Below are positions 6,001-15,763 of a stretch of DNA of 15,763 nucleotides, one piece after another. How positions within the stretch are numbered: the first letter of the stretch is position 1; each line of letters opens with the position of its first letter. The DNA comes from a virus. Lineage: Duplodnaviria > Heunggongvirae > Uroviricota > Caudoviricetes. The stretch is from the IMG/VR virus record IMGVR_UViG_2660238209_000003, positions 1-15,763 of that record, one strand, 5' to 3'. The position numbers are program-made.

Positions 6001-9000
6001 CTTGGTTTGCGAGAAGCACAGCTTGCTCAGCAACAGAAAAATAACGAGCGCGATTTTGAATTTGCGCAGTCTCAGTTTGAACATAATAAAGACGTTGATC
6101 AGCGGAACTTTGATTACAGAGCCAAAGTTGATGACCGCAATTACGCACTGCAGGAAAGGGAGTTTAACGCCAACCAGAATTACCGGAATGCGTCGCTGGG
6201 GATGGAACAGCAACGACTCCAGTTGCAGAAATACAACCAGCGACGGCTTGAGTATAACGATATGCTGGCACGTGATCAGTCGGTGATGGTGGCGCTGGGA
6301 AAAGCGATTGATGCAGGTGACCATGATGCGGCCTCTCGTCTGTTCGGAAAATTATCGGATGCCAACCCCATTAAAATAATATCAACGGAAGGCTATGCTG
6401 CGAAGGCGGGTCAGGCCGTGAACAACCTGCAGAAAATCTTTGATGATAAGCCGGACAGGGCGATCGATTCGCTGAATACCCCGGAAAATCTCGATGTGCT
6501 TTCCGGCGTGTTTGCCCCGGAACTACAACAGCGTATTGGCATGCCTGATTCAACCGGGGAAAAAACGATAAAAGAGGCCAGGATTGGCAGTATCGTACCG
6601 GCGCAGCAGGAAGGGTACGTACTTATTGGCCTTGATCTCACATACAGCGATGGCTCCACCGCGCATAAACCTGTAACAGAATACGGCAGTGCGCACCCTG
6701 ATGATCAAACCGTGCTGGCGATACCCGTTGATAAGGCTATCGCTCAGGTCAGGGATCGCAGCAAATTTGCAGAGATATCGAAAAATTATGGTTATTTTAT
6801 GCCGAAGCAGCAGGGACTTTCTCTGAAAGAGCTTCAGAAGGGGGCCAGCAACGTAGCGGCGGACGCGATTAAGAATGGCGGTAATGCTCAGGCTGCGGTG
6901 GATGAATATTATGCTGCGACTGGTTCACAACCGCATCAACAGAAAATTCAGCAACAAAAACTTCAGCAACAGGTTATCAACTGGGCGGGAGATGATCCTG
7001 ATAAGCTGTCATTTGCCAGAAATGTAGCGGCCCGTCAGCCTGAAATGCTGGAACCTCAGAATCAGAAATTGCTGGAGAACGGGTATGCGAATTTTCTCCG
7101 TATTCAAAAGGCCAGGGGGGAACAGGCCAGAGATGAAAGTGCTTCATCTGCATCTCAGTTTATCCGTGGACTGAAACAGAATTACGCCCAGTAATTCACG
7201 ATATTCCATTAATACCATTTCCTGATGCCCGGCCATTGTGCCGGGTTTTTTTATGGAGTCTGTATGGCCTATTCAGAGGAACAGCGTCCTGAGGCGCAAC
7301 TCGGTAACCAGAATCGTAACAGCCTGAACATTCAGCAACCCGGCGAAACTGACAGCTATGAAGCATTTTTCTCTGATTCAAATCGCTGGAAGGATAACAG
7401 TACGTCGTTCAGCCTGGGCGATGTATTGCCAACAATGGGTAAAGGTTTCGCCCGGTCCGTCCGGGGAACAGGGGAAATGGCCCGTGGACTCGGTGATGCG
7501 ATGATTCAGAGCCCGGTAAAAACAGGGGCGCGTATTTTAAATGAGTTCAGCCGTATGGGGCTGCCGGGTGTCGCAACTGTGCAGGATATTTTTGCCGGTG
7601 GCAGCAGGGGGGCTGATGAGGTCATCGATACCCTGCCTGATGGCAAAAACGCGGTTACAGATACTGTCGGTAAAGGTCTGAAGGTCACCGGTAAGGCTGT
7701 CAGTGACGGCGCTAAATCCTCGGATGAATGGCTGACCAGTAAGATGTCTCCGGGTGCTCTGCGTGCGCTGAATACGCCGATGACCGAAGGCTATGATGAT
7801 TCTGCGGTCTGGGTGGCGAAGGGCGTAAACCTGATTGGTGCCCTTGTACCTGATATGGTTGCTGGCGGTGTGGCTAAAAAGGTGGGTGATGTCACATTGC
7901 GAAAAACGCTGACCGCCGGGCTGGAGAAAAAATACATCGCGGCAGGGATGCAGCCGGAAAGAGCCACGGCACTGGCAGCAGAAGCTGTCGATAAAAAAAT
8001 GCCGGATTTATTCCAGGCGGGCCTGATCACCCATTCCACAGCCAGTGCACAGGGGCAGAGTGCAATGGCGGCAGCAGATGCTGTTCTTAATGCGGATTAC
8101 TCTGAGCTGGCGCAGTCACCGAAATTTCAGCAGACGTTTTTGTCCATTGACGCCGATCCGCAGCACGCACAGCTTACTGATCGCCAGAAAATGGATCTGG
8201 CAAAAGAGCGTGTTGCCGATGAGGTGCGCGCGCAGCTGGCAACAGATCCTGAATTGCTGGCTGTGAATGCCATGGCGGCAAAACTGGGCGATGCTCAGTT
8301 GCTTAATCTGGCGATGCGGGGCACGGCGAATACCGTTAAAAGCGGCATGATCAGAAACGCCACTGAACAGGGGGCGATTAATGCGGCGCAGGGCGGCTAT
8401 TCACGCTATCAGGAAAACATGGCACTGCGTGATACCGCCGGAATGGATGTGTCACCGTGGGAGGGCGTGGCTGACGCAACGATCGAAGGTGGTACTCTTG
8501 GTGCTGCGATGGGGGCTCCATTCGGTGCGGTTGCCGGATATCGTGGCAGACGTCAGGCCGCAGAAGAAACCGCCATGCGTGATGCTGAAACCGTGCAGCA
8601 GGGCGAAGCGGCCCCGCAACCCGAACCGGTTGATCCGGTGGCGCAGCACCGTGAATCCATGCAGGGGATGAATCGCGAGCAGCTTCTGGAACAGTATGCT
8701 GATGCGGATATGGCGCATGAGGGAGACACGTCTGCCGTTCATCGCCGGGAAGCCGCCAGCCAGCTGTTGAATGAACTGGATGAACAGGCGAAGCGACAGG
8801 CGGTGATGGATGAGCTGAAGGCGAAGCCGCGCCCTGAACTGCTTGAGGAATACCGAAAACTCAGCCTGAAGGAAGGGCGTACTGATACTGAAGAGCAGCA
8901 GTTACAGGCTATCCGTGATGTGCTTCGCCCTCAGCAGGAGGCCAGACCGGAGGCACAGCCACAGCCGGAAAATGCGGATGATGGCGACGGGAGTATTTAC

Positions 9001-15000: not shown

Positions 15001-15763
15001 TACCAGGAGAACATGCCGTTTGGTACACCAAAACCTGACAGCCAGCTGGGAAGACGTTCAACGCCAGAAGCGTACAAGGCGTTTGCATCCTGGCTGAATG
15101 CGTTCTCAGGTGGCAGCCAGTACCGTTCAGGCGCGGTGGATATCACACCGGAATCGCTGAAATACTGGGTGGACTATATCTCTGGTGGTACAGGTCGCTT
15201 CATTTCCAAAACCACGGATGCGGCGGTGAAATCGCTGAATGGTATTGATATACCGGAGCAGCAGGTGCCTTTCCTGGGGAAAATTTCGGGAGAGGTGATG
15301 CCGTATGCTGACCAGCAGAAGATGTATGACCGGATGACGGAGGTTGTGCAGTACCACGCAGAGCTGAAGAGCCTGAGGGGTTCCGAAAGAACGGCATTCA
15401 TTGACGAGAACAACGGAAAATTGTCGATGAACGGGCTTATGCAGGATACCCGGAAGAGACTGAAGGATTTGCGTAAACAGCGTGATGCCATTTATGCCGA
15501 CAGTACTCTCAGTCTGGCGCAACAGTCGGCGATGGTGAAATCGGTTGAGCGGGATATGAAGATTGCCGTGGATCGGTTTAACCGCGAGTACAACAAAAAA
15601 GTGGGGGTGGAGTAAGAGAAATTGCCCCGTACTGAAGTGCGGGGCATTCTTAACATAATGTGTACATAAGTGAGTACTGTTGTGATGGATGTTTTGGTAT
15701 TTAATGCATTTAAATCAATGGATTGATATTTATGTTCATTATATCCATTTAACTAAGAGGACA

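Follow-up and report, generated by a model that had tools for sequence, protein, structure and literature searches.

We analysed a 15,763-nt window, the whole stretch taken from the Caudoviricetes virus record IMGVR_UViG_2660238209_000003 of IMG/VR, and found a single unbroken open reading frame (ORF) of 2783 aa on its + strand. The product of this gene is an internal polyvalent protein of the short-tailed Shiga toxin (Stx) phages (Traversvirus, Sepvirinae). The gene and its parts are as follows.

7264-15615, + strand: gene of the giant polyvalent internal, probable ejection, protein (Stx2-86_gp35; orthologue of Sp5 ORF80/ECs1242 and of phi24B gp47)
7227-7246, + strand: terminator-like GC hairpin followed by a T-run, directly 5' of the start codon and overlapping ATG 7225
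7606-8583, + strand: N-terminal module, aa ~115-440, always near the N-terminus in relatives
8488-8538, + strand: glycine zipper GxxxGxxxGxxxG, aa 409-425, GGTLGAAMGAPFGAVAG, closing the N-terminal module
8596-9933, + strand: acidic Pro/Gln-rich linker, aa ~445-890, poorly conserved, with two GLPxP motifs
9946-10401, + strand: conserved region upstream of LPD5, aa 895-1046, no Pfam model
10402-10833, + strand: LPD5 domain, aa 1047-1190, Pfam 4.5e-43
10777-11553, + strand: predicted metallopeptidase domain 1, zincin-like, aa 1172-1430; Pfam "LPD1" (aa 1351-1430) covers its C-terminal helices
11662-12225, + strand: zincin-like domain 2, aa ~1467-1654, with HEIIHH at 1541-1546 and the family motif HExxxH
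12481-12756, + strand: MuF_C / PBECR domain, aa 1740-1831, predicted metal-independent RNase-like fold
12871-15612, + strand: C-terminal chassis, aa 1870-2783, a single large body, mainly alpha-helical, with a beta insertion
14659-15276, + strand: LPD38 domain, aa 2466-2671, within the chassis, Pfam 4.7e-49, present in every relative scanned

The first-pass annotation of this DNA had described an uninterrupted frame with only short competitors on the minus strand, and both points hold: the longest minus-strand ORF within the gene is 201 aa. The stop-to-stop version of the frame begins at ATG 7225 and would encode 2796 aa. We preferred ATG 7264 as the start, because GGAG lies 7 nt upstream of it and ATG 7225 falls in the hairpin at 7227-7246. 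The phi24B GenBank record HM208303 starts the giant ORF at the upstream ATG, with a "putative leader peptide" note (5149-5187); this extension overlaps the terminator hairpin and brings the only two cysteines of the protein. The same record places three minus-strand "genes" within the giant ORF (8192-8515, 10667-11047 and 11398-11769 in phi24B coordinates), which are short shadow ORFs. Both these genes and the upstream extension look like annotation artefacts.

From base 240 on, the window shows 100% identity with the Stx2-converting phage 86 (NC_008464) and two other Escherichia phages, and ~180 further Stx phages match it at 90-95% identity. Bases 1-239 lie outside the match to the identical records, and therefore the upstream gene at the left end of the window is a variant other than that of phage 86. 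The RefSeq product for the giant ORF (Stx2-86_gp35) is "LPD5 domain-containing protein". The exact gene sequence occurs on 439 contigs, one variant of 98% identity is carried by at least 1000, and a search for homologues of the whole protein returned solely near-identical E. coli prophage copies. The gene accounts for ~14% of the phage genome and is the final one of the late block, with the integrase next to it and tail fibre, lom and virion genes preceding it.

To place the protein in a family, we searched domain profiles. Pfam identified LPD38 (4.7e-49), LPD5 (4.5e-43), LPD1 (3.1e-23) and MuF_C (3.4e-18), with scores 2.4-6 times the gathering scores. PHROG 616 matched the protein end to end, and the NCBIfam model CLCA_X matched aa 1172-1427 (5.5e-45). 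The LPD domains were defined in a 2017 survey of the polyvalent proteins of phages and conjugative elements (Iyer, Burroughs, Anand, de Souza and Aravind, J Bacteriol; PMC5512222). The first-pass annotation saw no recognisable family here, which was wrong because the LPD domains belong to this described family; the other profile matches and the 100%-identical annotated phages tell the same. Its suggestion of a virion-packaged polyvalent protein was borne out, as the Pfam domains are those defined for such proteins of phages. As in other polyvalent proteins, several distinct effector-type domains, LPD domains included, lie in one very large chain that is encoded among virion and late genes.

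Several other families were searched for in the 2783 aa. Pfam found no methyltransferase, RNA polymerase or lysozyme/transglycosylase domain, and no Walker A motif ([AG]xxxxGK[ST]) occurs anywhere in the chain, so that motif and Pfam scans agree with the first reading that such signatures are missing. No T7-like single-subunit RNA polymerase core was detected by Pfam, NCBIfam or PHROGs. The giant ORF matched no tape-measure or tail-fibre family in Pfam or PHROG, and its orthologue is also missing from the phi24B tail model; a known structural protein of that kind, considered as a possible outcome at the start, was thus not what emerged. Two matches were set aside: Arm-DNA-bind_4, which is under the Pfam cut-off, and a faint PADLOC match to SNF2 (E=0.0013). 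Sequence searches of the PDB with the whole protein, a mid-region profile, a C-terminal profile and the 421-aa neighbour returned nothing meaningful.

Two candidate zinc-binding motifs, HEWFH and HEIIHH, had been noticed at the start and were placed correctly, at nt 11083-11097 (aa 1274-1278) and nt 11884-11901 (aa 1541-1546). They are not a chance occurrence, because only 0.033 HExxH motifs are expected from the composition of the protein and two were observed. We conducted an exhaustive search with aa 1172-1740 over 1.84 billion representatives (50% identity clusters, E<=0.001) and found 5,931 matching representatives, of which the best 150 are mostly proteins of 2,000-5,700 aa. Among these 150, the residues H1253, E1255, H1274, E1275, H1278, D1281, E1365, R1369 and E1372 of domain 1 are invariant or near-invariant. 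This pattern agrees with the phage-type metallopeptidase described by Iyer et al., in which strand 2 ends in a conserved His and an Asp stands three residues beyond HExxH (PMC5512222). Since conserved Glu residues sit within the Pfam LPD1 stretch, we assign "LPD1" to the C-terminal helices of the first zincin and not to a domain of its own.

The second motif lies in a domain that no Pfam model covers. Here E1542 is conserved in 96/96 sequences, H1541 in 93/96 and H1546 in 73/96, and E1597, located on a later helix, is invariant. As the conserved second His is H1546, the motif of the family is HExxxH, a variant of the phage metallopeptidase that was also described by Iyer et al. (PMC5512222).

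An AlphaFold2 model of aa 1172-1740, built from 28 diverse homologues, reached a mean predicted local distance difference test score (pLDDT) of 79.9. Each of the two sites is modelled as a helix and a three-stranded sheet, followed by the motif helix and more helices; in domain 2 the three-stranded sheet and the motif helix that follows it have pLDDT ~85-95. The gluzincin layout, with the HExxH helix after a three-stranded sheet and a Glu on a downstream helix, was found at both sites from model and conservation. The Glu ligands of this hub domain are predicted on a later helix, E1365/E1372 for H1274/E1275/H1278 and E1597 for H1541/E1542/H1546, which bears on the question, raised together with the motifs, whether each lies in a zincin fold with a third ligand downstream. 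A Foldseek search of the two-domain model against the PDB gave no significant E-value, and ~45 of the top 50 weak matches (~90%) were HExxH peptidases; in our zincin fold test, the structural similarity to solved zincins was rated as significant. Aligning domain 1 with domain 2 by hhalign put the motif helices in register in a weak match (P=0.009, probability 4.5%). We conclude from the model that domain 1, with HEWFH and the downstream Glu, is an anthrax-lethal-factor-like zincin and a predicted peptidase, and that domain 2 is a second, divergent HExxxH zincin-like domain.

The MuF_C domain at aa 1740-1831 scored 66.1 bits against a Pfam cut-off of 27.6. According to Iyer et al., MuF_C is the PBECR domain, with a metal-independent RNase-like fold and no peptidase (PMC5512222). 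The His/Ser pair that marks active PBECR members is kept in the relatives, H1742 in 27/28 and S1806 in 26/29. The label "MuF-C metallopeptidase" in a phi24B preprint (bioRxiv 10.64898/2026.04.10.717836) is therefore mistaken, because MuF-C is defined as the RNase-like PBECR domain. The actual zincins lie outside it, at aa 1172-1430 and 1467-1654.

On the other side of the zincins, the conserved region before LPD5 carries the motif I-x-D-F-G-E-x3-G-A-x-K, followed by P940, P942, Y944, G951, R964 and W978, of which P940, Y944, G951 and R964 are invariant. This region co-occurs with the first zincin in 140/148 diverse giant-protein representatives. LPD5 is listed as potentially enzymatic by Iyer et al. 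(PMC5512222). The region and LPD5 together form the most divergent patch between the alleles of Stx phages: at aa ~800-1200 (window ~9660-10860) the identity to phi24B and 933W is 60-76%, versus 92-100% elsewhere in the protein. In the phage collection, aa 895-1440 fell into identity classes of >=95% (29 records), 80-90% (8 records) and 60-80% (149 records), and the C-terminal third is >=95% identical in every Stx-type record. The stretch at aa ~800-1200 is an allelic mosaic patch, with the window holding a minority allele.

To describe the ends of the protein, we compared it with its relatives. The N-terminal module was found by phmmer in 31 relatives, at their positions ~80-500, and blastp matches to it have 26-28% identity; phrog_37568 matches aa 170-437. 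The glycines of the zipper are kept in nearly all relatives (G413 31/31, G417 31/31, G421 29/31, G425 27/29), and the zipper is a candidate membrane-active segment that may act at membranes. The N-terminal part had been called Gly/Ala-rich; the enrichment exists but is only moderate, with Gly and Ala making up 25-31% per 100 aa over aa 101-500. The linker that follows is matched by only 2-6 of 28 relatives. Its acidic, Pro/Gln-rich character stood as first described (Pro and Gln 23%, Asp and Glu 18% over aa 801-900), but its reported GLPxP repeats come down to two motifs, GLPSP and GLPAP, and Tandem Repeats Finder found no repeat at 9690-9810.

The C-terminal 914 residues were present and always terminal in 28/28 viral relatives, at 27-76% identity, and a second scan of viral contigs, with alignment, recovered essentially the same loci as the first. 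Among the best 150 of the 5,931 representatives, 32 carry this chassis. It occurs in podophages of Vibrio, Ralstonia (GP4-like), Burkholderia and Bacillus, and in the Vibrio, Ralstonia and Bacillus contexts that we examined the gene stands at or near the end of the structural block. Relatives with the same chassis bear other cargo, including an ADP-ribosyltransferase (ART-PolyVal), PBECR5, a ResIII helicase, RadC and DdrB-ParB. This domain shuffling, with a constant chassis and swapped cargo, is what is seen in polyvalent proteins. The structure model of the chassis has pLDDT 83.4 and a predicted template modelling score (pTM) of 0.81. The giant protein is thus tripartite, with an N-terminal glycine-zipper module, swappable cargo and a chassis of ~900 aa, and a disordered acidic linker lies before the cargo.

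The giant protein contains no cysteine in 2783 residues (P ~1e-7 at the cysteine frequency of the window's other ORFs), and 120 of the best 150 representatives are also without cysteine. We found that the four ORFs directly upstream (4554-7194, 869 aa in total) are likewise free of cysteine.

4554-5207, + strand: orthologue of phi24B gp51
5210-5656, + strand: orthologue of phi24B gp50
5667-5918, + strand: orthologue of phi24B gp49
5929-7194, + strand: orthologue of phi24B gp48

All four phi24B proteins were detected in virions and are not in the cryo-electron microscopy (cryo-EM) model, and copy estimates of 22-36 were given for three of them (10.64898/2026.04.10.717836). The 421-aa ORF at 5929-7194 is the orthologue of the essential Sp5 ORF79, whose mutant has the same phenotype as the deletion of the Sp5 giant gene, ORF80 (PMC5155283). 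The ejected giants N4 gp50 and DEV gp71 are likewise cysteine-free, and the large helical C-terminal part of DEV gp71, with a zinc motif, binds a periplasmic tunnel protein (PMC11445570). The four upstream genes and the giant gene form a candidate cassette of internal or ejection proteins.

The 83-aa ORF at 5667-5918 is named "bacteriocin" in RefSeq. It has a sub-threshold match to Gly-zipper_YMGG, and a glycine zipper also closes the N-terminal module of the giant protein. Weak PHROG matches link it to segments of tape-measure and endolysin families, and the phi24B authors ascribed the low virion signal of its orthologue to contamination (10.64898/2026.04.10.717836).

The physiological evidence comes from the orthologues. 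In Sp5 (VT2-Sakai), ORF80/ECs1242 encodes 2,793 aa and belongs to a set of nine morphogenesis genes newly recognised as essential (Mondal et al., 2016, PMC5155283). The deltaORF80 mutant made normal-looking heads with DNase-protected DNA and zero infectious phage; its particles showed no tail-fibre antibody binding (data not shown), and the authors proposed a role in tail assembly (PMC5155283).

The phi24B orthologue, gp47, has 91% identity overall and ~98% in the C-terminal third, and all candidate catalytic residues are identical. This protein (2811 aa in the authors' numbering) was found by mass spectrometry in purified virions, and the authors noted LPD5, LPD1, LPD38 and MuF-C on it (10.64898/2026.04.10.717836). 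With 10,962 peptide-spectrum matches (PSMs) it is second to the capsid protein alone, and its counts per gel slice from the top were 2188, 1686, 1187 and 1260, then falling; the maximum for the 80-kDa portal lies in the fifth slice (10.64898/2026.04.10.717836, supplement). Peptides at aa 133, 513, 828, 1277, 1548 and 2484 had ~70-80 PSMs each (10.64898/2026.04.10.717836); these are per-peptide totals over all slices, and they show that all regions are present. Since the totals are alike along the length and the top slices are richest, the whole chain is packaged, mostly as a very large species, and is not trimmed to one fragment. It is not visible in any phi24B cryo-EM map, and it was proposed to be a capsid-internal ejection protein (10.64898/2026.04.10.717836).

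Taken together, these data suggest that the giant protein is a head-internal polyvalent ejection protein with conserved terminal modules and a swappable enzymatic middle, to which we give a probability of about 70%, and that it is probably injected with the DNA. The first-pass annotation had offered the polyvalent protein and the oversized podovirus internal or ejection protein as two likenesses; the place of gp47 in the virion and outside the cryo-EM model supports the latter as well, and in this protein both readings are the same thing. In the mechanism that we propose, the protein would be stored within the capsid. At infection it would exit through the portal and the tail channel, before the DNA or along with it, and a cysteine-free chain would suit passage through the channel and the periplasm. 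The glycine-zipper module and the chassis may then help to build or engage a trans-envelope conduit, with the small virion proteins of the upstream genes, also cysteine-free, as partners. The cargo would act in the new host: the zincins may process the polyprotein into functional fragments or have host proteins as their substrates, and the RNase-like domain may act on host or defence RNAs.

Several points weigh against this interpretation. We infer ejection into the host by analogy and because the protein, although present in the virion, is not seen by cryo-EM. The tail-fibre antibody result for deltaORF80 is not obviously explained by a pure cargo or ejection protein. The copy estimate for gp47 of ~19 per virion (range 11-35), which by the authors' account may be off by a factor of 1-3 (10.64898/2026.04.10.717836), means a very large internal load for a 305-kDa protein. 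No structural relative of the chassis turned up among solved ejection proteins, and it lacks any strongly hydrophobic transmembrane segment; a part in the conduit is therefore conjecture.

Mondal et al. would instead read the protein primarily as a factor for tail assembly or head completion at the portal vertex, with the enzyme-like domains secondary or vestigial. The DNA-filled normal heads of deltaORF80 that bound no tail-fibre antibody, the position of the gene at the close of the tail and late gene block, and the same phenotype for the neighbouring ORF79 all fit such a role. However, DNA-filled non-infectious particles are also produced by ejection-protein mutants, as in P22 genetics, which counts against this explanation. 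The phi24B cryo-EM model explains the portal, two adaptor rings, the nozzle, the fibres and the needle with no need of the giant protein, the antibody result was given as "data not shown", and catalytic residues that are invariant across thousands of relatives argue against vestigial enzymes. We consider a primary assembly role unlikely; it is also not exclusive of ejection, as a portal-anchored internal protein could stabilise the tail.

The enzymes themselves have been read in other ways. Some podovirus internal proteins bear cell-wall hydrolases, for example T7 gp16, which counts in favour of the idea that the metallopeptidase of the giant protein digests peptidoglycan for passage of the conduit. 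This was proposed in the phi24B preprint for a "MuF-C metallopeptidase domain" (10.64898/2026.04.10.717836), and according to Iyer et al. some polyvalent proteins have domains that target peptidoglycan (PMC5512222). But MuF_C has the PBECR RNase-like fold and is no peptidase, and Pfam detected no lysozyme, transglycosylase, amidase, DD-peptidase or M15/M23 peptidase domain on the giant protein. The type of peptidase found lends no support to this idea, which we regard as improbable. Least likely by far is that the protein is an AAA+ ATPase, from the COG1483 match reported by Mondal et al. for ORF80 (PMC5155283), or a DarB-like antirestriction enzyme, from the PHROG label of its relatives. In favour stand the faint SNF2 match and phrog_10089, "DarB-like antirestriction", which matches aa 2341-2671. 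The PHROG match is limited to the LPD38 chassis, which is common with 4.5-kaa Ralstonia phage proteins bearing other cargo, and Pfam and NCBIfam found no ATPase, helicase or methyltransferase domain. The AAA+ ATPase was ruled out because the Walker A motif is missing and no ATPase family matched, and the DarB-like label fails since the N6-adenine methyltransferase and DExH helicase domains were not detected.

Returning to the head-internal ejection protein, we also put forward, quite tentatively, a wider proposal. The N-terminal zipper module, the 900-residue chassis and the four small cysteine-free virion proteins might form a previously undefined trans-envelope injection apparatus common to Stx, Vibrio, Ralstonia (GP4-like), Burkholderia and Bacillus podophages, with a fold without solved relative, which would serve as a platform for swappable cargo. 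The hypervariable pre-LPD5/LPD5 region might then be a host- or defence-specific "warhead" that helps to decide which E. coli strains an Stx phage can convert.

Elsewhere in the window, we observed three terminator-like hairpins with T-runs between late genes on the + strand, at 3653-3671 (after lom), 4512-4531 (after a 133-aa ORF) and 7227-7246 (before the giant gene). Late transcription would presumably have to read through all three, and Q antitermination in lambdoid phages would permit such read-through. The G+C content falls to 0.40-0.43 at 2000-3500, in the outer-membrane-protein, membrane-protein and lom genes, versus 0.50-0.58 elsewhere, which is consistent with a moron insertion.

Stx phages spread Shiga toxin genes among E. 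coli, and the giant gene is essential in Sp5. Literature or databases already contain the gene, its family and its probable role, the family having been described computationally in 2017 and the virion presence reported in 2026; as a discovery this is the re-identification of a protein known in kind and not a new kind of system. The new results are the confirmation of the zincins at the fold level, the second HExxxH domain without a Pfam model, and the reassignment of LPD1 and MuF_C. Also new are the tripartite layout of chassis and cargo, the five-gene cysteine-free block and the hypervariable cargo patch among Stx-phage alleles. Since the catalytic residues of two zincin-like domains and one RNase-like domain are now defined and the peptidase assignment is corrected, the protein is amenable to point mutation. 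Should the cargo act on host targets or defences, it would be relevant to the host range of the phages that carry the toxin genes.

Among known systems, the closest counterparts are phi24B gp47, Sp5 ORF80 and the 933W orthologue, which have a common genomic position with the window gene; the latter differs from the 933W/phi24B allele at aa ~800-1200, as described above. The anthrax lethal factor, Pro-Pro endopeptidase (MEROPS M34, ATLF-like) and MtfA zincins resemble the modelled zincin at a sequence identity of only 14-16%. Compared with them, the giant protein has no sequence-level match to any PDB chain, and it carries the extra invariant strand-2 pair H1253/E1255 and D1281.

The polyvalent proteins of Iyer et al. 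share with it the four signature domains LPD5, LPD1, MuF-C/PBECR and LPD38, and the zincin metallopeptidase hub domain, including the described variant with a His ending strand 2 and an Asp at +3. The second domain corresponds to their HExxxH type, and the encoding among virion genes and the shuffling of cargo domains in relatives are alike. However, that survey was done by computation alone, and in it the Stx-phage protein received no separate treatment and 933W no mention (PMC5512222). Here "LPD1" is part of the zincin and not a separate domain, and the conserved pre-LPD5 region and the second zincin have no published model.

P1 DarB and DdrB are also large head-internal phage proteins delivered with the DNA, and the PHROG annotation of the relatives borrows the DarB name. 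They differ in that the giant Stx protein has no methyltransferase or helicase domains. DdrB is cleaved before packaging (PMC5512222), unlike gp47, whose peptides from the full length occur in virions at similar counts.

The likeness to the Schitoviridae virion RNA polymerases N4 gp50 and DEV gp71 is drawn from features. These proteins are likewise of multi-thousand-residue size, packaged in virions and unseen in reconstructions, and the giant protein, absent from the phi24B cryo-EM maps, shares their cysteine-free composition. A further likeness lies in the layout: membrane-active segments towards the N-terminus, for which the giant Stx protein has a candidate, and a large helical part towards the C-terminus, with a zinc (HExxH) motif. 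Their genes adjoin smaller ejection-protein genes, as the giant gene adjoins candidate ones. In contrast, the giant Stx protein has no RNA polymerase core, and the estimated copies of gp47 are several-fold above the ~4 of N4 gp50.

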